A stretch of 64,000 bases of DNA from a virus. The DNA is taken from the IMG/VR virus record IMGVR_UViG_3300035670_000153, positions 8,173 to 72,172 of that record; one strand, given 5' to 3'. The notes below the pieces were generated by a model, which had not been told where the DNA came from, made no database searches, and saw nothing but the letters and a program-made list of their open reading frames with translations. Both the position numbers and the translations under genes were made by a program. Positions 8,076 through 54,028 of the stretch are shown piece by piece (the first letter of the stretch is position 1; every line of letters begins with the position of its first letter).

Positions 8076-8741
8076 TTATAATTCTATAATCCTATCATAT
8101 AATACGGTATGTTTATCATCTATTCTTTTATCCATATGAAAATGACCAAAATACCAGTGTTTATAATTTAATCTACTTTCTAAATCATCAAAGAAAGTAT
8201 TGAGCTTTTCATCTTGTGGAATGAATCCGAATAAATGAATTAAATTTGTTGTAGTTGTATGAGTTAATACATAATCAACTTTCCAATTATTATTATTTAA
8301 ATTGAGTATAGCTTCATCATATTCTTTTTGATTAGGTAATTCATCTTCCCACCAACTAACATTTTTTACTCTATACTTTCTATCTATTGAATAAGCTCCA
8401 CCCATTGTAAAAAATTTCTTATTTTCTATGGTAAATATTTGACCTCTCATAAGATGATATATTGATTTTGATATTTTATGTATTTTACCACCATTCCAAA
8501 GATGTATTGGATATTTGTTTATTTCAGGCATTCGTTCATGATTCCCATCTACAAATAATGTTGTATAGGGTTGTTTATTTAAAAAAGATTGTATAAATTT
8601 ATCATTTTTACCTTTATCCCATACCCCTCCAAAATCACCACATATAATTAGATAATCTTTTTTTGTTAATCCTTCTGTATTCAATTTATTTAACTTATCA
8701 TAATCAATTACTCCATGTAAATCACCTGTAACAAATATCAT
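8076..8741 (-). CDS. Calcineurin-like metallophosphoesterase
   Basis: GDLHG, GDFG, DGNHE, THT, GHFH motifs. Confidence 0.9.
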   Translation of the reverse strand: MIFVTGDLHGVIDYDKLNKLNTEGLTKKDYLIICGDFGGVWDKGKNDKFIQSFLNKQPYTTLFVDGNHERMPEINKYPIHLWNGGKIHKISKSIYHLMRGQIFTIENKKFFTMGGAYSIDRKYRVKNVSWWEDELPNQKEYDEAILNLNNNNWKVDYVLTHTTTTNLIHLFGFIPQDEKLNTFFDDLESRLNYKHWYFGHFHMDKRIDDKHTVLYDRIIEL

Positions 8742-43831: not shown

Positions 43832-45034
43832 TTAAATAATTTCTATTAAATATTTTACAGTACAAGCTTCTTCTTTGTATACAACAATTTCATCTTTTCT
43901 TAACATTCCAGTTCCACCATGAGCATGTAAACAATTTGCTCCTTTACATGCACTTTGCAGTATATTTTGATTGAAATTATAATATTTACTATCAAAACTA
44001 TAAACATCATATGCTTTTCCATAAGCAGTCTCCATCAATAACATAAATCCTGTATGTTCAGACCCATGTGACCATCTTGAACCTGATACGCTTGTGTATC
44101 CTCTTGATTTATCAAAATCATTAGATAAATAAATCCCGCTGCCAAACATCTTACCCGTAATTACTGCATTTGGTCTTAATACAAGACCAGAATTTAAAAT
44201 ACTCCAAACATTTTCTGACCTAGTACCATGGAAAAACAAATCTGTTTTTAATATGTTTTCACTTTTTAAGTAATCATTATATTTATTTTGAGTTTTTTTA
44301 TTTGTAATCTTCCATCCTTGTTTAAATTTATCTTGCATAGAACCCATTTTTGATTTTATTGCTTTTATATCTTTATCATTTAACTCTTCAAATTCTATTC
44401 CTAAAGCTTCTAATATTGTTTGATTTTTTGTAACAACATCATCATCATTATTGTTGTTATCTTCAATTTTATTTTGTTTTACTTGACCTTCCATAATATC
44501 TAGTAAATCTTGTTCTCGATTTATTATAGATATGTAGTCATCTTTTGATTCTGCTAAATAATCTACTACTTTTTTCATTTTTCTTGGAATAGTTTTAAAT
44601 AATTGCAACAATACTTCATTGAATTTGTTACATTCATTTTCATTTCCAAGATTATAAAGTAAAGTCTGAGCTTCATCAACCATTAATTGTGTAACTTTAT
44701 CAGATGATATGGTATAATTATCTTTTACGGTTTGTCTAGCTATTGCTTGTAATCTCTCAACTATTTTTGAAATATTAGGATTATCTAATGATAAATATTC
44801 ATTTTTCTTTTTTATAATAGGTACTTCTATTAATCTTGTCTGGTCAACATATCCCTTTTTTATTTTGCTATTCAAAGTAGAATGCCATTTACCCATTGGA
44901 TATGTTTTTGATTGATATGATGTATTTCCTATCCTACCATATTGGACTTCAAATGTAGAACCTAATTCAATCATTTTATAATACTTATTATTATTTGCAT
45001 CTGCCTCTACCTTAACAAGATAAACTGTTTTCAT
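43832..45034 (-). CDS. WGR-domain PARP-like ADP-ribosyltransferase
   Basis: NNNKYY..YGRIG..KIKKGY (WGR), IPRKM (regulatory), catalytic H-Y-E triad in FHGT / GKMFGSGIY / DEIVVY. Confidence 0.9.
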   Translation of the reverse strand: MKTVYLVKVEADANNNKYYKMIELGSTFEVQYGRIGNTSYQSKTYPMGKWHSTLNSKIKKGYVDQTRLIEVPIIKKKNEYLSLDNPNISKIVERLQAIARQTVKDNYTISSDKVTQLMVDEAQTLLYNLGNENECNKFNEVLLQLFKTIPRKMKKVVDYLAESKDDYISIINREQDLLDIMEGQVKQNKIEDNNNNDDDVVTKNQTILEALGIEFEELNDKDIKAIKSKMGSMQDKFKQGWKITNKKTQNKYNDYLKSENILKTDLFFHGTRSENVWSILNSGLVLRPNAVITGKMFGSGIYLSNDFDKSRGYTSVSGSRWSHGSEHTGFMLLMETAYGKAYDVYSFDSKYYNFNQNILQSACKGANCLHAHGGTGMLRKDEIVVYKEEACTVKYLIEII

Positions 45035-45120: not shown

Positions 45121-46140
45121 TCAATGAGCGTATTTATCAGCTTCATGCACCATCATTAATTCATTATAAAAATCTTCACCAACTAAATTAATTAATTTTT
45201 GTTTTGATTTTTCTGTATTTGTATTATGTAGTCTCATATGAAATTTTATTAATTGACTAATATGTAAAATTTGAAGTATATTATTTTGGTAATTCTCATA
45301 GTCATATTCAGGAATTAGTTTTGATATCATTTCTAAGAATATTAATATCCCATCATAAGCTGATACATTTTCATGGTTATAAAAATGTGCTATATCAGTT
45401 GTTTCTCCTTTATGATTTATAAATGTTTTAGTAAATTCTTTTCCAATATCATGTAGGAATGTTGCAAATACAACATCATAATTAACTCCATGTTTTTGAA
45501 TAATATAATCTTTAGCTTTACGACAGTGTTGCCCTACTGTTAATGTATGATAAGGAGAATCTTGATTTATAATATCTAGTCTTTCAAATATTTTATCAAT
45601 ACTATATTTTTTTAAATCATTTATTTCATATTTAATATCAATTTTATCCCAACCTTCAAAATAATAAGGCACATCAAAATTTAAATACATTCTTTTAATA
45701 ACATCTACAGGAACATTTCTATCTCTATTTTTATTTTGTTCTAAACATTTGTCATATGGAGTAAGAATTAAAACAGCAATTTTTTCACAGTCAATATTAT
45801 TAATCTGTCTTAGGAATTCCATTCTCCTTTTACTTGATATGTTTGTAGCATCATATACTACATTATTTCCATTTAATAAGTTTGATTTAATTCTATCATG
45901 AACAATTTGAAATACATACCATTGATTACTTTGGTCATTTATATCTCCTAATACTTCTTCTCTAATTGAGTCTGATGAAACTATGATAGCATTATGTGTC
46001 TTTGCTATCTCTTGTGAATGATAAGATTTTCCACTAGCAGGTAATCCTATCATAAAAAATAATTTTGGTCTTAAATTTAATTTACTCATAACATCATCTT
46101 CTTTCTTTTTTATTTTTATGTCGTAAATATATAATATCAT
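45121..46140 (-). CDS. Polynucleotide kinase (AAA_33) fused to HD phosphohydrolase
   Basis: GLPASGKS, SSDSIR, DATN, R.R.VP; HD domain H...HDIGK..HE..SA..HM..D. Start probably MSKL ~46090. Confidence 0.85.
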   Translation of the reverse strand: MILYIYDIKIKKKEDDVMSKLNLRPKLFFMIGLPASGKSYHSQEIAKTHNAIIVSSDSIREEVLGDINDQSNQWYVFQIVHDRIKSNLLNGNNVVYDATNISSKRRMEFLRQINNIDCEKIAVLILTPYDKCLEQNKNRDRNVPVDVIKRMYLNFDVPYYFEGWDKIDIKYEINDLKKYSIDKIFERLDIINQDSPYHTLTVGQHCRKAKDYIIQKHGVNYDVVFATFLHDIGKEFTKTFINHKGETTDIAHFYNHENVSAYDGILIFLEMISKLIPEYDYENYQNNILQILHISQLIKFHMRLHNTNTEKSKQKLINLVGEDFYNELMMVHEADKYAH

Positions 46141-46195
46141 ATATTATTTACAATGTCAAGAGTTCTGTGAAAATTGATTACAGAACTCTTTATCA

Positions 46196-46642
46196 TTAAT
46201 TAACTTTATTAAATTCAACATTAAAATATTCTTGTACTTCTTTTTTAGCATCTTTAAAGCATTTAATATAATATTTTAAATCACTAACTTCTTTTTCTTT
46301 CAACTTCATATCTCTAATTAGTTGAATTACAACTCGAAACATAGAACCATCATCTTTATAACCAAACCATCCATTATGTATCCATTCCTCTGTTCCATCT
46401 GTATATTTAACTAATTTTTGCAGTGACCTACAACCATCGCTTTTAGTTACAAACCTAATAAAATTATTAATTATAGTAATCTGTTCACTATTATCTAATG
46501 GTTCACGTTTTTCTTTTCTTATTTTTTTTGTAGATGTTTCAGAATCAGAATCCTCTTCAAAATCGTTTTCATTTTCTAACTCAACATCTAAATCTAACTC
46601 TAATTCATCTGTAATTAAGCTATTTTTTGACATAATGCACAA
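46196..46642 (-). CDS. Hypothetical protein
   Basis: GGAGG RBS; acidic N-terminus. Confidence 0.6.
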   Translation of the reverse strand: MCIMSKNSLITDELELDLDVELENENDFEEDSDSETSTKKIRKEKREPLDNSEQITIINNFIRFVTKSDGCRSLQKLVKYTDGTEEWIHNGWFGYKDDGSMFRVVIQLIRDMKLKEKEVSDLKYYIKCFKDAKKEVQEYFNVEFNKVN

Positions 46643-46673
46643 CCTCCAATTATTTTATTTTAATATTATTATA

Positions 46674-47996
46674 TTATTCATCTTGAACGCTTTGTGCTTC
46701 TTCAATATCTAATACATCATCGGATTTAATTATACCTTCTAAAACCTTAAATGTAAAGTTTTTATTTTTTAATGCAGTAAATTTTTCTCTGTTTTCAATT
46801 CTTACCACAATACCTTCTCTGATATGAGATTTACCAATTGGGTCTACTCCATCAGTATATTTATTTACTCTTTGCATTAAATCTTCTTGAGTAGTATATA
46901 TAAATTTTTCAAATACAGGAACATGTTCAATTCCCATTTGTTCACATCTCATTTGTGTTAATTCTGTAGGATATTCTACTACAATTCCATCTTCATTTGT
47001 CATAGTCATTCTATATACAAATACCTTATTTTCTCCAACATTACATCTATATGTAAACCTAGTAGTTTCACCATATTGTTTAATAAATTCTTTATCTTTT
47101 GTTTTACTATTATTGCATTCAGGCATAATTAATTGATTACTTTCTGTATATCCTACAATTTCTCCATAAACTGTCTCTCCTTTATGTAATTTACCTAGGA
47201 AAAAATTATGCCATTGTTCTCTGAATTTATTTGTCCCATAAAATCCACCATCAAATGTATTCAATATGACTCTTCTTGAACCTGAAACATAATCCCATTC
47301 TTGTGTAGATTTAAATTTTACACCTAAAATATAAAGCAAATTTAAAATGAATCTAGGTAATTTACTATTCCATTTAGATTGAGTAATTTTAAATGCTCTA
47401 CTTTCTCTTAAACTTGTTCCATGCATTTTTAGAGATATAGTACAAATATCACCTTCTTTAAATTTAGCCATATTATAAGCTAATTGTTCAGTGTCTCTGT
47501 GTTCTGAAAAATAAGGAAATTTATTTTTTAAACTTATTTTCTTAGAATTACTTACTTTCATTCCTGTATTTTTTGAACCATTTATATGATTTGTTTGAGG
47601 AATATACTTATTACAAATTTCTACCCCATTTAGGATTGAAATTGTGTCACCTTCTTTTAAAGTACCAACATCGGTAAAACTATGTAAACTATTGACATTT
47701 AACAATAAGCCATCTGATTTTTCACCTCTTAATTTTACTGATGAAACATGTCTTTTGTTTGGGTCTAAATATCCACCAATTTCATTCCCTTGTTCATCTT
47801 TCTTACGCAACAAATTATTTGCCTCACAAAAACCCATATTTAATCTTCCATCTGTTGGGAAATATACCATCATATCTCCAATTTTTACATCTAATCCAAC
47901 TATAGTATCATTTCCAAATACTGTTGCTACTTGTAATCTATCTGCATTAGAATGTTTTCTTAACTCTTTTATTCTTACAATATATCCACAATACAT
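46674..47996 (-). CDS. ATP-dependent RNA ligase (DRB0094/Rnl5-like, N-terminal OB domain)
   Basis: HSNADRL..LRGEKSDG OB domain; motif I KMHGTS, III YGEIVG, IV EGIVVR, V LKNK. Confidence 0.82.
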   Translation of the reverse strand: MYCGYIVRIKELRKHSNADRLQVATVFGNDTIVGLDVKIGDMMVYFPTDGRLNMGFCEANNLLRKKDEQGNEIGGYLDPNKRHVSSVKLRGEKSDGLLLNVNSLHSFTDVGTLKEGDTISILNGVEICNKYIPQTNHINGSKNTGMKVSNSKKISLKNKFPYFSEHRDTEQLAYNMAKFKEGDICTISLKMHGTSLRESRAFKITQSKWNSKLPRFILNLLYILGVKFKSTQEWDYVSGSRRVILNTFDGGFYGTNKFREQWHNFFLGKLHKGETVYGEIVGYTESNQLIMPECNNSKTKDKEFIKQYGETTRFTYRCNVGENKVFVYRMTMTNEDGIVVEYPTELTQMRCEQMGIEHVPVFEKFIYTTQEDLMQRVNKYTDGVDPIGKSHIREGIVVRIENREKFTALKNKNFTFKVLEGIIKSDDVLDIEEAQSVQDE

Positions 47997-49105
47997 TATA
48001 CAATACCTGCTTTCTTTAATATATTTTTATTTATTTCAATTACTAATTCATTTATTTTATTTTCATCTGGTTTTAATGGTAATTCAGTATGTTTAATAGA
48101 AAATTTTAAATCTTTTTCTGCTTTATCAATCATATTAAAAATTTCTGAATAATCTTTATTATTATCTTTATTAATTACATAATCTCCATTCCTTAATGCC
48201 ATCATAAACTCATGTTCATGTGCTCTATTTGTAATAACTCCTTTACCTTCTAATATTTCTTTCCCCATTCTCATAAGTCTTATAATATGCATTACATGCT
48301 TATTTAAATGGATATCATCTTTCTTATTGTTTCTATGATTAAGAGAATCATAATCTTTAATAACATTTTTCCATTCAGATAATATAGATAATAAATCTCT
48401 TAATGGATAATGTTTAAGATTTAAATTTAAAAATATTTCTTCATCAAAATCTGTTTTGTTTGATTTATCAAGAAATAAGTTAATATCTTTCCCATCAAAG
48501 CAATGATAATTACGTTCTATATGTTCTCTTTGATGATTTATACTGTCTAATATGTGTTTCTCTTTTTCTTTTTGAGGATATGAGTCACGTGCTAAAGCAT
48601 TTTGTAATCTTCTTAATTGAGCTGTAGCATATCCACAAAAGGAATGTATTGCTCTTTGAGATAAAAATAAATTGATATTATCTCTTAATATTTTACCTTC
48701 ATTACTTAATACAAAAATATCTTCTTCTCTAGTTCCAAATATTTCTAGTACATTGGGATTGCAATTCAATAAAAGATTAATAATTTGTTTAAAATAATAA
48801 ATAGTAGTATCTGTTTTAGTTTCTACAAATGGCTTATCTGTATTATTCATAGTCAGTAAATCATAATAACTATTATGTGCAACTCCTCTAATATCAATAT
48901 CACTATTTTCATTATTTAATCCATAAGCATATGAACCACCTAATGTAAGTATCATTAAATTATCTTTAAATTTATCTTTTAAAAAATCATAATCATTACT
49001 TGTATAAATTGTTTTTTGTATCTTTTTTGAATAATTATTTCCCATATTCATCTCCCCATATATTTTTAATATTATGTTTCGATTTTTTATCTGCTTTTTT
49101 TTCAT
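47996..49105 (-). CDS. Pol-beta-family nucleotidyltransferase (YcgL/RlaP-like)
   Basis: GGSYAYG...SDIDIRG, CNPN..E, KH.MH..RL; start probably ~49045. Confidence 0.82.
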   Translation of the reverse strand: MKKKQIKNRNIILKIYGEMNMGNNYSKKIQKTIYTSNDYDFLKDKFKDNLMILTLGGSYAYGLNNENSDIDIRGVAHNSYYDLLTMNNTDKPFVETKTDTTIYYFKQIINLLLNCNPNVLEIFGTREEDIFVLSNEGKILRDNINLFLSQRAIHSFCGYATAQLRRLQNALARDSYPQKEKEKHILDSINHQREHIERNYHCFDGKDINLFLDKSNKTDFDEEIFLNLNLKHYPLRDLLSILSEWKNVIKDYDSLNHRNNKKDDIHLNKHVMHIIRLMRMGKEILEGKGVITNRAHEHEFMMALRNGDYVINKDNNKDYSEIFNMIDKAEKDLKFSIKHTELPLKPDENKINELVIEINKNILKKAGIV

Positions 49106-49597: not shown

Positions 49598-51073
49598 TTA
49601 AAAATAGTAATTTTCTATTTTCTTAACTAATGTATCAGTTCCATTTTCTGCTAAATGAATAAAATCAAAAATCTTTTCTGACCATCCTGCTATTATATTT
49701 GTATGATGTCCTTTAAATTGTTGTGTTCCATATCCCATTAAATCAACAGCATGAATCCAAACATTATTATTTATTTTATTTCTATATTCATTTGCAATTT
49801 TTTGACAAGGTACTTTATTATTATTATACCATGATGATACTCTATCCATATCCCATCCTGAATTAATTTCATTATCAGATAATACAATAATTCTATCTAC
49901 CTGTATATTATTATTAATTAAATATCTGAATGGTAATGTTATATCTGTTCCTCCACCATCAATTCTCATTCTTTCAGCATTTGATATAATTCCATTTGTG
50001 CTTGGCATAGTAACGTTTCTAATATTTGTATCAAAAGTAACTAATATTGTATCTTCACAAACATAATTACCCATAGACATTAATAGTGTTGCTATTTCTG
50101 AACATTTAATTGTACTCTTATTACTTATTGCACTCGACATAGAGCCTGATACATCACAAGCAATTAAAGTTTTACCTTTAAGTGTTTGTACGTTTTGAGT
50201 ACTTAATTTTATAGCTTCTTCTAAAATATTATAAACCTTAGATGAACCTAGATTTTCTTGTTGCAATGTTTTATATGCTGAAAAATATCTGAAAGGTAAC
50301 TGCTTATTGTTAAGAACAGCATCTCTATTTGATAAAAAATCGTAAACCATATCAATATTATTAGGATTTGCTTTTATGATGTTTCTTAAATTTCTAAGCA
50401 TTGCCATATATCCAACTTTTTTACTTGCTATTAATCCTTCCCATACTTCTTTTGTATTACCTTTTGCAGATAATTCTGTTTCCCAAGTATAAGGTGTTTC
50501 TAATTTATCTTCTAATAATCTTTTAAACATATCATTTTGAACTTCTGTTTTTGCTTTAGGATGTGTTAAACAAACTAAATCTTTAAGTTTTATATCTTTA
50601 CTTTGGCTATTATATTTTTGTAATTGATACTCATTAAATGTAAGTAATCTATCAGCTAATCCCTTTTTAACAGAGTTTGGGATTGGTTTACCATAAGTAT
50701 TAATTATATATGATAGTATTTCTGTCATATCATCTACTCTTTCAATTACATTGTTAATAGTTTTTCTTGTAAAAGGTTTTCCATTAACATGATTAGCTAA
50801 CTCTCCAACTAAAACGTGAGATATACTACGTAAATGCATTTCTTTTCTTGCAAACAATGCTAAATTAGCAATGAATTCTGGTTCTTTATTTAATACATTA
50901 CGAATATTTTCAACTATTTCATTTGAATTATCACCATAAAACTTTGATTCATTAAATAATGATGTAAGAACTTGTGTAACTAATTTTTCTTTATCAGACA
51001 TTGTAAAAGCTTTAACACCTGATTTGTTTTCAGTAATTGAATTATCACTTGCATTTTTATTAAACTTTGACAT
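49598..51073 (-). CDS. rsr: Ro60/Rsr TROVE-domain RNA-binding protein with vWA domain
   Basis: MSKFN, FY, ARKEMHLRS, YQLQKY, THPK, TWE..LS, GYMAMLRNLRN, QLPFRY, vWA DVSGSM, GGGTD, SDNE, AGWSEKIF. Confidence 0.93.
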   Translation of the reverse strand: MSKFNKNASDNSITENKSGVKAFTMSDKEKLVTQVLTSLFNESKFYGDNSNEIVENIRNVLNKEPEFIANLALFARKEMHLRSISHVLVGELANHVNGKPFTRKTINNVIERVDDMTEILSYIINTYGKPIPNSVKKGLADRLLTFNEYQLQKYNSQSKDIKLKDLVCLTHPKAKTEVQNDMFKRLLEDKLETPYTWETELSAKGNTKEVWEGLIASKKVGYMAMLRNLRNIIKANPNNIDMVYDFLSNRDAVLNNKQLPFRYFSAYKTLQQENLGSSKVYNILEEAIKLSTQNVQTLKGKTLIACDVSGSMSSAISNKSTIKCSEIATLLMSMGNYVCEDTILVTFDTNIRNVTMPSTNGIISNAERMRIDGGGTDITLPFRYLINNNIQVDRIIVLSDNEINSGWDMDRVSSWYNNNKVPCQKIANEYRNKINNNVWIHAVDLMGYGTQQFKGHHTNIIAGWSEKIFDFIHLAENGTDTLVKKIENYYF

Positions 51074-51576: not shown

Positions 51577-51660
51577 TGGTGGGTAGAGATAGATTTGAAC
51601 TATCGTAGCAATTGCAATGGATTTACAGTCCATCTCCTTTAACCACTCGGACACCTACCC
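51577..51660 (-). tRNA. tRNA-Tyr(GTA)
   Basis: ATGGA-CTGTAAA-TCCAT; ACCA end. Confidence 0.93.
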
Positions 51661-51665
51661 ATATT

Positions 51666-51737
51666 TGTGAATAAGAGGACTCGAACCTCTATCTAACAAC
51701 TTGAATCGTTAACTTTGACCAATTAAGTTATATTCAC
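51666..51737 (-). tRNA. Aberrant tRNA-like gene (6-nt anticodon loop TTCAAG; no encoded CCA)
   Basis: Perfect acceptor GTGAATA/TATTCAC, D arm ACTT/AAGT, T arm AGAGG-TTCGAGT-CCTCT; anticodon arm AACGA-TTCAAG-TTGTT. Confidence 0.7.
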
Positions 51738-51769
51738 ATAGTTAAAATATCATTTACTTTTATTACTAA

Positions 51770-51850: not shown

Positions 51851-51978
51851 TTAAAAGAAAAACGACATCAGTATTTTTTGTTATCCTGCCATTAGACGAA
51901 TTCATAAATTATGAATAATAGGACTCGAACCTAATATCTACACCTTGGAATGGAGTAACTGATATCTACACTTTTTAA
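51851..51978 (-). ncRNA. Y-RNA-like ncRNA #1 (YrlA-like permuted tRNA mimic)
   Basis: AGTGTA-GATATCAGT-TACTCC ... ACTGATGTC-GTTTTTC; insert has a T arm (TAGG-TTCGAGT-CCTA), closed acceptor hairpin and D arm. Confidence 0.75.
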
Positions 51979-51981
51979 TAA

Positions 51982-52057
51982 TGGTCTACTCATCAGGACT
52001 CGAACCTGAAACCTCATCACCCCAAATGACGAATTCTACCAATTGAAATATGAGTAG
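51982..52057 (-). tRNA. tRNA-Pro(TGG)
   Basis: CGTCA-TTTGGGG-TGATG; ACCA end. Confidence 0.9.
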
Positions 52058-52064
52058 ATATTTT

Positions 52065-52163
52065 TTTGTTTTAGAGAAAATCAATATTTGTATTTTTATT
52101 TTATCACGCTAGAAACGTGACTATTATGTAAGAAGTAACAAATATTTACACTTCTAAAACAAA
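52065..52163 (-). ncRNA. Y-RNA-like ncRNA #2
   Basis: TTTGTTTTAGA-AGTGTA-AATATTTGT-TACTTC ... ACAAATATT-GATTTTC-TCTAAAACAAA; internal hairpin TCACG/CGTGA. Confidence 0.72.
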
Positions 52164-52196
52164 TTGTTATTAATAATTAATCTCTTTATCATAAAT

Positions 52197-52304
52197 ATAT
52201 TTTATTATTTAGAGAAAATCTATATTTGTATGTAAACCCTCGTCTGAGAGTATCTTATATCGGAAAGAAGTAACAAATATATACACTTCTAAATAATAAA
52301 TATA
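52197..52304 (-). ncRNA. Y-RNA-like ncRNA #3
   Basis: 17-bp terminal stem, AGTGTA-TATATTTGT-TACTTC ... ACAAATATA-GATTTTC. Confidence 0.72.
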
Positions 52305-52372
52305 CTTACTTCAATAAAAATTGTAAGGTTTAATTTAATAGAATTAAACGGCAATTTAATCCTAAATAATTT

Positions 52373-52444
52373 TACTTGAGAAAATCAAATAAAGTATTTA
52401 TTTTCACCAAAAGAAAGAAGTAACTTTATTTTACACTGCAAGTA
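52373..52444 (-). ncRNA. Y-RNA-like ncRNA #4 (minimal)
   Basis: TACTTG-C-AGTGTA-AAATAAAGT-TACTTC ... ACTTTATTT-GATTTTC-T-CAAGTA. Confidence 0.7.
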
Positions 52445-52447
52445 TAA

Positions 52448-52523
52448 TGGCTGGAAGACAAGGATTCGAACCTCGATTATCTGAGTCAAAGTCAGATGTC
52501 ATAACCAATTAGACCATCTTCCA
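52448..52523 (-). tRNA. tRNA-Gln(TTG)
   Basis: TCTGA-CTTTGAC-TCAGA; U1-A72; GCCA end. Confidence 0.93.
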
Positions 52524-52609
52524 TTATTGGAATATATTTTGTAAAAGAATTAAATCCATTTACGCATATATTATAAGTATAATTCTTTATAAAAATAATT
52601 TTAATTTTA

Positions 52610-53275
52610 TTATTTAATAACTGGTTTAAATTCTCCAAAATATTTTTCTTCTGCTTCTTTTCTAGCATTTACAGCATATTGAAAAACTTCATATCTGCCT
52701 AGAAATATATTCTTATTATTTATTCTAATATAGGCATACCATTTTTGTCTTTTATCATCCCATCTTACACCCATTACTCCACTTTTATTTGTTGATACAA
52801 TATTTTTATTTCTTGCATTTTCTTGACTAGTACAACATCTTAAATTATATTTAATGTTATTTAATGGATTTCTATCAATATGGTCTACTACAATATTATT
52901 ATTATCATCAACAACATTCATTATAAATCTGTGCAATTTAACATGTTTACTATCTATAGTTGTACATACATAATTATTTTTGCTTTCTATACACCATTTA
53001 TACATACTACATCTTTCAACATCATTTAAATCAATTATAGCTTTATTAATAGGATTCCCTTGAATATTATATAAAATAATTTCAGCATAATTATCATATA
53101 TGATTATTTCATTTACATCATTTCTATTTCTTTCTTGTTTTGATTCATCAATAATTTTATTATGTCTTTTTAGTTGTTGATAATGTTTACCACATAATAT
53201 CATATTCCATTTTTTGCTATTTGTCATCTTATGTGTCTCATTTTCAAAACAACCACAAATATTACAAGTATACAT
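52610..53275 (-). CDS. HNH homing endonuclease with AP2 domain
   Basis: LHRFIM, VDHIDRNPLNN..NLR..T..EN..N, SGVMGV.W...KW.A.I...LG. Confidence 0.9.
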   Translation of the reverse strand: MYTCNICGCFENETHKMTNSKKWNMILCGKHYQQLKRHNKIIDESKQERNRNDVNEIIIYDNYAEIILYNIQGNPINKAIIDLNDVERCSMYKWCIESKNNYVCTTIDSKHVKLHRFIMNVVDDNNNIVVDHIDRNPLNNIKYNLRCCTSQENARNKNIVSTNKSGVMGVRWDDKRQKWYAYIRINNKNIFLGRYEVFQYAVNARKEAEEKYFGEFKPVIK

Positions 53276-53312
53276 TACTTCACCTTCTTTTATTTATTGA
53301 TTGATAAAATTT

Positions 53313-53478
53313 TATTAGGAGAAATTCGATATTGGTTCATATGTTATATTTTGTGCTTATTTAACCTGTCAAAACACAGGACTTAGATTAAAGCACCCCA
53401 TCTAAGTTTTGTTTTTTTAAAATACGAAATTTTAAAATTCTTATAATTTGAAGTAACCAATATCTACACTACCTAATA
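53313..53478 (-). ncRNA. Y-RNA-like ncRNA #5 (large structured insert)
   Basis: TATTAGG-T-AGTGTA-GATATTGGT-TACTTC ... ACCAATATC-GAATTTC-T-CCTAATA; two internal hairpins. Confidence 0.72.
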
Positions 53479-53522
53479 TCTTACCTTTTCTGCTTTTCTT
53501 ACTATTTCATAAAACAATTTGT

Positions 53523-53593
53523 TAATCCGAGAAAAAATGCATAGAGTGTTTTTTCGTAAAATGAAGTAACCCTAATGCTACACCTTCGGATTA
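53523..53593 (-). ncRNA. Y-RNA-like ncRNA #6 (minimal)
   Basis: TAATCCGA-AGGTGTA-GCATTAGGGT-TACTTC ... ACTCTATGC-ATTTTTTC-TCGGATTA. Confidence 0.68.
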
Positions 53594-53667
53594 TGGCAGG
53601 GATGGAAAGAATTGAACTCTCGACAATGGTTTTGGAGACCATTGTTTTACCATTAAACTACATCCCT
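53594..53667 (-). tRNA. tRNA-Trp(CCA)
   Basis: ATGGT-CTCCAAA-ACCAT; GCCA end. Confidence 0.93.
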
Positions 53668-53675
53668 ATAAGTAA

Positions 53676-53806
53676 TATTCAGAGAACAACTATTAGAAAT
53701 TTTTTACGTTTTACCATTAAACTACATCTGCATGTTGCAGATGATTGGACTCGAACCAATATCTTATCAACCCATTTGAAGAAATTCCAATATACACTTC
53801 TAAATA
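53676..53806 (-). ncRNA. Y-RNA-like ncRNA #7 (YrlA-like permuted tRNA mimic)
   Basis: AGTGTA-TATTGGAA...TTCTAATA stem; T arm ATTGG-TTCGAGT-CCAAT, acceptor hairpin CATCTGCA-ACA-TGCAGATG, D arm GTTT-AATGGT-AAAAC. Confidence 0.75.
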
Positions 53807-53809
53807 CTA

Positions 53810-53884
53810 TGGTAGCTCATACCAGAATTGAACTGATATTTTGTGGTTGAAAACCACATGTCCTTACCATTAGACGAATGAGCC
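53810..53884 (-). tRNA. tRNA-Glu(TTC)
   Basis: TGTGG-TTTTCAA-CCACA; ACCA end. Confidence 0.9.
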
Positions 53885-53890
53885 ATATTA

Positions 53891-54024
53891 TAGGTGAGAA
53901 AATCAAATAGTCTTTTATCGTACTCTACCATTTGAGCTATAACACATCATATGATGTATTAGTGAGACTCGAACTCACAACCCCGTCATTAACATTGAAG
54001 AAGTACTATTTTACACTACACCTA
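53891..54024 (-). ncRNA. Y-RNA-like ncRNA #8 (YrlA-like permuted tRNA mimic)
   Basis: TAGGTG-T-AGTGTA-AAATAGT ... ACTATTT-GATTTTC-T-CACCTA; T arm GTGAG-TTCGAGT-CTCAC, acceptor hairpin, D arm GCTC-AAATGGTA-GAGT. Confidence 0.77.
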
Positions 54025-54028
54025 AATT

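Follow-up and report, generated by a model that had tools for sequence, protein, structure and literature searches.

Three RNAs encoded in a viral genome, numbered #1, #7 and #8 within an array of eight, are very probably Y RNAs of the YrlA class: predicted partners of Ro60, built as permuted tRNA mimics with a sealed acceptor, that belong to a widespread sub-type carrying a complete mimic of the anticodon arm. They were found in a stretch of 64,000 nt (the window; positions 8,173 to 72,172 of IMG/VR virus record IMGVR_UViG_3300035670_000153), which is part of a 72,172-bp contig with a G+C content of 24.7%, and occupy positions 51851-51977 (#1), 53677-53803 (#7) and 53893-54026 (#8). Like all features of the RNA array and of the Ro60 and repair genes, they lie on the minus strand. 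YrlA (Y RNA-like A, Rfam RF02553) is described by Chen et al. 2014 (PMC4201824), and the structure of the S. Typhimurium RNA by Wang et al. 2018 (10.1101/312249). In the text of the former, the class is defined by T, acceptor-like and D stem-loops, and a tRNA origin is suggested as possible for both YrlA and Yrn1. The solved YrlA example is reported in the text of Wang et al. to have no anticodon loop, whereas the loops described here are complete and closed. No description of an anticodon-loop mimic in YrlA was found in a full-text literature search; the supplements of Chen et al. 2014, which lay outside that search, may show the hairpin or clostridial YrlAs.

The order of the arms in #1, #7 and #8 is that of YrlA, a T arm followed by a self-complementary closed acceptor hairpin and then a D arm, with tRNA-type nucleotides in the T and D loops. 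An earlier note on this DNA, made from the letters alone, had proposed this permutation, and the covariance models and the Rfam alignment agree with it. RNA #1 is made up of a Y stem, a composite anticodon-like arm, a 5-nt variable loop, the T arm, an acceptor of 7 bp closed by a 3-nt loop, a Glu-like D arm and an A-rich linker; #7 and #8 follow the same plan, with closed acceptors of 8 bp and of 9 bp (4-nt loop), respectively. The free 5' and 3' acceptor ends of a tRNA are absent from all three, the ends being joined by a loop of 3-4 nt, and ARAGORN called none of them a tRNA. The Rfam tRNA model (RF00005, threshold 29 bits) gave 22.3 bits for #8 and 17.2 bits for #1, in matches spanning just the anticodon-like arm and the T arm. 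The Rfam YrlA model, with its gathering threshold of 69 bits, gave 27.5 bits for #8 (local) and 26.2 bits for #7 (full-length), both below threshold, and did not match #1. A core covariance model comprising only the T arm, closed acceptor and D arm was built from #1 and #7, which scored 68.1 bits (51883-51934) and 74.7 bits (53708-53760) as members of the training set; #8, which was not in that set, was recovered at 53922-53978 with 31.0 bits (E 1.6e-4).

The three RNAs share with the rest of the array of eight a frame in which a terminal stem is followed by an internal loop (5' GUGUA, 3' GAUUUUCUC), a helix of 9-10 bp and then GUUACUUC. The 5' motif GTGTA-N7-GTTACTTC, with up to two mismatches allowed, occurs seven times in the window, six of these in the array, against 1.08 copies expected by chance. 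The 3' motif GATTTTCTC at one mismatch is not above chance in the window (24 found, 25.7 expected); its exact copies number four, all inside the array.

In minimum-energy folds of #1, #7 and #8, the segment 5' of the T arm forms a hairpin of its own with a 7-nt loop. The strand after the D arm pairs over 2-3 nt only, the remainder being the A-rich linker, and a five-pair anticodon stem is impossible with that strand alone. The loop is closed by a composite stem, with five of five Watson-Crick pairs in each RNA, to which the strand after the D arm contributes positions 27-28 (or 27-29) and the conserved 5' sequence ...UUACUU-CGN/UCA contributes positions 29-31 (or 30-31). Loop A-U-UCC-A-A of #1 (51945-51951) is closed by A27-U43, C28-G42 and A29-U41 from the 3' side and by C30-G40 and C31-G39 from the 5' side. 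For loop A-A-UGG-G-U of #7 (53770-53776), the 3' side supplies U27-A43 and A28-U42 and the 5' side U29-A41, C30-G40 and A31-U39; for loop A-U-GUU-A-A of #8 (53989-53995), the corresponding pairs are C27-G43 and G28-C42, then U29-A41, C30-G40 and A31-U39. The invariant U of the 5' UU cannot covary with positions 42-43. The composite nature of the stem places the permutation point inside the 5' strand of the anticodon stem.

Both #1 and #8 show all of the features of a tRNA anticodon arm that were considered, namely a 7-nt loop, U33, a purine at 37, a 5-bp stem and a variable loop of 4-5 nt; #7, with a variable loop of 4 nt, departs from them by A33. The triplets UCC (#1), UGG (#7) and GUU (#8) stand in tRNA register at the positions where the earlier note had placed them. 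That note had taken the RNAs to be opened at the anticodon loop and to mimic anticodon-cleaved tRNAs. The opened-loop reading is wrong: a perfect 5-bp stem closes a 7-nt loop in all three RNAs, both half-helices covary among relatives, and the elements are more tRNA-like than had been thought. The closed 7-nt loops also set #1, #7 and #8 apart from YrlA as an RNA without an anticodon loop.

From its 5' end, such an RNA would run through the 5' strand of the Y stem, UUACUU, nucleotides 29-31, a 7-nt loop (C/A-U-NNN-R-A), nucleotides 39-41 and 42-43 and a 5-nt variable loop, and its 3' half would continue with the T arm, the closed acceptor, the D arm, N26, nucleotides 27-28, the A-rich linker and the 3' strand of the Y stem. 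Nucleotides 27-28 would keep their native tRNA connection to the D arm, nucleotides 29-31 would be supplied by the conserved 5' strand, and the exit of the Ro60-binding stem from the tRNA body would be a nick between nucleotides 28/29 or 29/30, on the 5' side of the anticodon stem, and not an opened loop.

Ro60 loci were gathered from 45 viral contigs, 80 species genomes (mostly Clostridia, with a few Bacillus) and 80 metagenomes. A single-protein Ro60 scan of viral contigs gave no relative, and an alignment-based scan was then used instead; in phage GenBank records there was no close relative of the region, the best Ro60 there being about 32% identical. At E <=1 the core model gave 94 matches in the viral contigs and 118 in the species genomes, nearly all just upstream of Ro60 on the same strand and often several per locus. 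The flanks of these relatives follow the consensus ...GUUACUU-CGN-[C-U-NNN-A-A]-N'CG-NN-[5 nt]-T arm, where NN, directly ahead of the 5-nt stretch, is complementary to the second and third nucleotides 3' of the D arm. Because MAFFT misaligned #8 with #1 and #7, its acceptor and D arms being shifted in register, models were built from in-register subsets. A second covariance model (82 positions, 21 pairs), built from L003, L026 and L029 alone, found the window elements independently, with 52.2 bits for #8 (E 6e-10), 49.2 bits for #7 (E 4e-9) and 32.2 bits for #1 (E 7e-5), and gave 161 matches at E <=0.01 in the window and 99 loci.

Junctions between neighbouring tRNA genes, with the T arm of one and the D arm of the next, can be misread as permuted tRNAs. 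The methods of Chen et al. 2014 caution about such junctions (PMC4201824), and the core model does match real tRNA-tRNA junctions weakly, for example at 51635-51690 (21.8 bits). As an explanation of #1, #7 and #8, this artefact, or chance, was rejected and has a negligible probability: no tRNA gene overlaps any of the three, each has its own self-complementary acceptor hairpin and Y-stem motifs, and in most of the loci searched Ro60 is closely preceded, on its own strand, by homologues. The related suggestion in the earlier note, that the RNAs arose from head-to-tail tRNA junctions of this phage, is not supported, as they belong to an old family whose members accompany Ro60 in many Clostridia and phages.

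Local exchange with neighbouring tRNA genes is plausible. The 21-nt identity of #7 with tRNA-Trp, reported in the earlier note, is exact (53708-53728 and 53644-53664); this patch, carried by tRNA-Trp(CCA) at 53594-53667, includes the D arm of #7 and four acceptor nucleotides. The longest run common to any two of the ten window tRNAs is 13 nt, and within other loci one of 225 Y RNA/tRNA pairs reaches an identity of 20 nt. The Glu-like character of the #1 D arm was likewise borne out, by a 13-nt run in common with the D-arm region of tRNA-Glu. The 5' module of #7 finds its best match in the phage tRNA-Pro UGG.

Base pairing was counted in 150 aligned matches (134 distinct) from the window and 99 loci. 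Of all cells, 96.3% were paired, against controls of 63.2% (shuffled sequences) and 37-53% (partners slid along). Helix 29-31/39-41 was paired in 89%, with changes on both sides in all three pairs (for pair 31-39, CG 42, AU 33, GC 20 and UA 14), and helix 42-43/27-28 in 95%, with changes on both sides in both pairs. A replicate in the 80 metagenome loci gave 97.0% overall, 89.4% for helix 29-31/39-41 and 98.6% for helix 42-43/27-28. A count of the best hairpin over five offsets discriminated poorly (at least four pairs in 68% of real and 40% of shuffled sequences) and was therefore replaced by fixed-offset and model-based counts; in the model-free fixed-offset count, pairing was 0.81 for 27-43 and 0.87 for 28-42, against 0.3-0.6 at other offsets. 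For nucleotide 41, the possible partner in 125 sequences is the 5' strand alone (45), the 3' flank alone (36), either of the two (34) or neither (10), a split which indicates that the site of the nick varies among the RNAs between 28/29 and 29/30.

The same counts bear on the classical picture of YrlA, in which the anticodon loop is the open end of the body, a helix between the sequences that precede the variable loop and follow the D arm leads directly into the Ro60 stem, and the triplets are numerology. The Rfam YrlA consensus has such a closing stem, of 3-4 bp, and no hairpin; the S. Typhimurium RNA is stated to be without an anticodon loop in the text that reports it (10.1101/312249); and the hairpin is absent from some relatives (L128 2367-2437 and L126 2444-2530). 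It is nevertheless very improbable that this picture applies here, where covariation is seen in the closing pairs 29-31/39-41, no more than 2-3 nt can pair 3' of the D arm in the window before the A-rich linker begins, the Rfam model needed a 10-nt insertion in #7 exactly at the hairpin, and positions 33, 37 and 38 are kept as in real tRNAs.

A fourth stem-loop, lying upstream of the T arm and starting after a YUAY motif as the hairpin does here, appears in the text of Chen et al. 2014 as the V stem-loop, where it is read as a tRNA variable arm and called less conserved (PMC4201824). To judge from that text, it is probably the same physical hairpin. Read in that way, the hairpin would be a structural or protein-binding appendage whose anticodon look is a tRNA relic, with no triplet-specific role. 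The exact placement of UUAC at the start of the hairpin in these RNAs and the existence of copies without a hairpin are in keeping with this, but we consider it unlikely. The hairpin is separated from the T arm by the covarying 42-43/27-28 helix and by a 5-nt loop ending in nucleotide 48, and it therefore occupies the anticodon and not the variable position. A G-C or A-U pair joins nucleotides 15 and 48 in 115 of 124 relatives. Of the window elements, #7 and #8 form it as A15-U48; #1, with A15 and A48, does not form it. This Levitt pairing identifies the 5-nt stretch before the T stem as the variable loop, with the hairpin in the anticodon position. A variable arm also leaves unexplained the anticodon-loop statistics of the hairpin, whose U33/R37/A38 frame and G36-G37 coupling are kept from Firmicutes to Xylella and Streptomyces phages while the triplet changes.

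A 7-nt loop was present in 100 of 125 distinct Y-type sequences. Among these hundred loops, U33 occurs in 87, a purine at 37 in 99, A38 in 82 and C32 in 57, and the entropy is 0.67-0.95 bits at positions 33, 37 and 38 against 1.63-1.94 bits at 34-36. Positions 36 and 37 are coupled as in tRNAs, U36 being followed by A37 in 54 of 54 cases and G36 by G37 in 16 of 22. The 141 distinct real tRNAs from the same loci have a matching profile (U33 in 136, A37 in 125), and 12 of their 15 G37 residues follow G36. The metagenome replicate added 54 new sequences, 32 of them with a 7-nt loop; U33 occurs in 30 of these 32, a purine at 37 in 31 and A38 in 28.

The most variable part is the triplet. Thirty-two kinds were seen, the commonest being GUU (15), UUU (11), UGG (8), UCU (5) and UCC (5), and copies within one locus carry differing triplets in 28 of 29 loci. 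Among 25 close pairs, with body divergence below 10%, triplet sites differ at 0.13-0.53 per site and the body at 0.03-0.07. The earlier note had named, as an outcome that would speak against it, triplets that are not conserved across homologues. Formally that is what was obtained; the triplets vary, however, inside a strictly kept tRNA-like loop frame, which fits mimicry of many tRNAs and not absence of function. A large group of Ro60-linked Y RNAs thus appears to carry a full anticodon-arm mimic in which the rules of the tRNA loop are kept and the triplet differs by copy, and this copy-to-copy difference hints that each copy imitates one particular tRNA.

The likeness to tRNAs extends to gene annotation. 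In the collected loci ARAGORN makes 14 tRNA calls bearing the Y 5' motif, and for the eight calls overlapping core-model matches the ARAGORN anticodon is the triplet read here. RNAs of this type were annotated by ARAGORN as tRNA (Thr, Asn, Glu, Ile, Arg and others) in L009, L013, L033, L038, L046, L056, L096, L116 and others, so public genome annotations may hold false tRNAs beside Ro60. The Rfam YrlA threshold misses the whole group, relatives scoring 35.5-50.9 bits against the cut-off of 69.

The hairpin form also occurs in two named phages. Xylella phage Usme (L128) has loops CUGUUAA and AUCUCAA, and Streptomyces phage BRock (L126) has loop AUGAUAA; each carries a hairpin-free copy alongside. 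In the Usme RNA at 2594-2677, the CUC (Glu-type) loop AUCUCAA occurs together with a D arm of tRNA-Glu type, and the agreement of loop and D arm suggests imitation of the whole body of one tRNA species and not of the loop alone. No such RNA was found in crAss001 or in a Vibrio phage.

Among the marks of YrlA are binding by Ro60/Rsr and psi55 and D modifications. With YrlA, #1, #7 and #8 share a position upstream of Ro60 on the same strand, the order of T, acceptor and D arms, the signature nucleotides of the T and D loops, several copies per locus, a covarying 15:48 Levitt pair and a YUAY-type motif (UUAC) at the junction with the Ro60 stem. They differ from it in that their 5' strands have no GNCGAAN0-1G motif, which is thought to contact Ro60, the shared motifs here being 5' (A/G)GUGUA and 3' GAUUUUCUC; in Rfam scores which, relatives included, are 26-51 bits against 69; and in the interleaving of eight Y-like RNAs with ten tRNA genes. 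In circularly permuted tRNA genes of algae, the 3' part is encoded ahead of the 5' part, as here, and the products mature into normal tRNAs. Unlike those, #1, #7 and #8 have a hairpin of variable length as their acceptor, and a long stem of Ro60 type spans the break. Like the RNAs described here, the D. radiodurans Y RNA Yrn1 has a 5-bp stem at the anticodon position in the model given in the text of Chen et al. 2014; its stem-loop, however, is flanked by the T arm on one side and the D arm on the other, the loop is of 6 nt, and the arms are in the reverse orientation (PMC4201824). The TYMV tRNA-like structure and tmRNA with SmpB, as presented in the text of Wang et al. 2018, are likewise L-shaped mimics with something in the anticodon position (10.1101/312249), but have free CCA ends and are aminoacylated, whereas #1, #7 and #8 have a sealed acceptor end and a Ro60 handle.

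The gene for the Ro60 orthologue lies at 49598-51073 and encodes TROVE (PF05731, E 1.1e-33) and Ro60 von Willebrand factor A (vWA; PF25045, E 2.7e-12) domains, with 58-73% identity to clostridial TROVE proteins. Ro60 would be the expected protein partner of the three RNAs, whose genes lie about 0.8 kb (#1), 2.6 kb (#7) and 2.8 kb (#8) upstream on the same strand, within the distance of about 4 kb from a Ro60/TROVE gene that characterises YrlA. Domain searches placed RNA-repair genes downstream of Ro60, at 45121-49105. These encode an RlaP nucleotidyltransferase (47996-49105), then an RNA ligase (46674-47996), for which no sequence relative was found among solved structures, and a polynucleotide kinase with an HD phosphohydrolase domain (Pnk/HD, 45121-46140), whose kinase domain matches the kinase module of C. 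thermocellum Pnkp (CthPnkp) and T4 Pnk. On phage contig L001 (167 kb), three such RNAs are followed by Ro60, RlaP, a CCA-adding enzyme, a ligase of the same type and Pnk/HD, and in Clostridium homopropionicum genes for a WYL-domain protein and RtcB lie upstream of the Y RNA and Ro60 genes. The structure, its conservation, the tRNA-like loop statistics and this gene neighbourhood are directly supported.

The role of the tRNA-like domain of bacterial Y RNAs has been an open question since 2014, and an unknown interaction partner is favoured for it in the text of Chen et al. 2014 (PMC4201824). The arm mimic makes the question concretely testable. Each copy may imitate one tRNA isoacceptor without being chargeable and, held on Ro60, may engage proteins which read anticodon loops, a proposal to which we assign a probability a little short of even. 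The likeliest targets would be anticodon nucleases of the host, with the RNA as bait or decoy, and the phage's own healing and sealing enzymes might be further targets. Ro60 binding, expression and every functional step are inferred. Taken as a whole, the explanation that joins the identity of the RNAs to a bait mechanism is evenly poised between right and wrong.

The main rivals of a bait function are the vestigial arm already considered and a repair scaffold. As a scaffold, the tRNA shape would recruit Pnk/HD, the ligase and RlaP (with the CCA enzyme in relatives) to a Ro60 that holds broken RNA ends, and the triplet would be irrelevant. The order Y RNAs, Ro60, RlaP, ligase and Pnk/HD in both the window and L001, and the resemblance of the kinase domain to CthPnkp and T4 Pnk, argue for such a role. 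It leaves unexplained why triplets differ within 28 of 29 loci and why they change faster than the body, and we give it a low probability.

The three RNAs could instead be reserve or 'pro' tRNAs, permuted genes whose transcripts are cut at the acceptor loop by RNase P, trimmed and given CCA to yield chargeable two-piece tRNAs for Gly, Pro and Asn. According to the texts of both papers, M. smegmatis YrlA is cleaved by RNase P and gains CCA (PMC4201824; 10.1101/312249). The CCA-adding enzyme of L001 is encoded two genes downstream of Ro60, after RlaP, and the phage of the window has no tRNA-Gly or tRNA-Asn gene. Maturation into chargeable tRNAs is nonetheless quite improbable, since the length of the acceptor hairpin varies, from 6 to 9 bp and longer among 163 relatives and through 7, 8 and 9 bp in the window, and since the Ro60 stem would remain attached within the anticodon stem.

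In a bolder form of the bait proposal, Ro60 would carry a set of baits specific to isoacceptors, with the anticodon loop of one tRNA species displayed on each Y RNA copy to enzymes that attack or read such loops. The triplet, changing fast, would then keep pace with the range of anticodon nucleases that the phage or bacterium encounters, and a cut in the bait would either spare the real tRNA or yield a fragment that recruits or activates the neighbouring repair genes, RtcB and the WYL-domain protein in Clostridia and the ligase and Pnk in phages. This form is speculative and, on balance, rather doubtful; were it true, the tRNA-like domain of YrlA would gain its long-missing function.

Several points weigh against the identity and function preferred here, namely YrlA-class RNAs with a complete anticodon-arm mimic that serve as bait. 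Pairs were counted in alignments fitted to the very structure under test. A 7-nt loop is missing from 25 of the 125 relatives, and some copies, such as L128 2367-2437 and L126 2444-2530, have no hairpin at all, so the hairpin is dispensable for at least some members of the family. Within the window, #7 has an atypical A33, and it is the least certain of the three because the second model aligned it with a 5-nt loop. The 5' GNCGAA motif described for YrlA is absent. The comparison of triplet and body rates rests on few close pairs, which are not independent, and selection may not be what maintains the likeness of the loop, which tRNA genes could restore patch by patch through gene conversion, as in the Trp patch of #7. 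The computations made tied no triplet to any nuclease, and the presence of the same RNAs in bacterial chromosomes means that their role cannot be purely anti-defence.

The stretch is present in DNA runs of subsurface and wastewater metagenomes. Upstream of Ro60, ten tRNA genes are interleaved with the eight Y-like RNAs. The five without a tRNA-like body lie in 52066-53592, at 52066-52158 (#2), 52200-52293 (#3), 52372-52444 (#4), 53310-53482 (#5) and 53519-53592 (#6); this span also contains tRNA-Gln. They have a Ro60-type stem and the GUUACUUC motif, as in #1, #7 and #8, with unrelated inner hairpins in place of the tRNA body, and in #4 and #6 a small hairpin 3' of the GUUACUUC motif likewise has a 7-nt loop. 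The tRNA at 51665-51738 scores 56.8 bits with Rfam, yet has an anticodon loop of 6 nt (U-U-C-A-A-G); ARAGORN labels it tRNA-?(SeC|Leu), with a two-letter anticodon, and it lies 4 nt upstream of tRNA-Tyr.

Downstream of the array, the minus strand also encodes an NAD-dependent DNA ligase, and between this gene and Pnk/HD lies a gene for a PARP catalytic domain with an N-terminal WGR domain (43832-45034). In BRock, a near-threshold match to the manA RNA motif (L126 5079-5242; 49.7 bits, cut-off 55.2) was found between two tRNA-Lys genes close to Ro60. The array of the window is itself interrupted by an HNH/AP2 open reading frame resembling homing endonucleases (52610-53275). In a related phage contig from a wastewater run, the array is kept and this reading frame is absent, position 52531 being joined to 53309, as expected for a mobile insertion.

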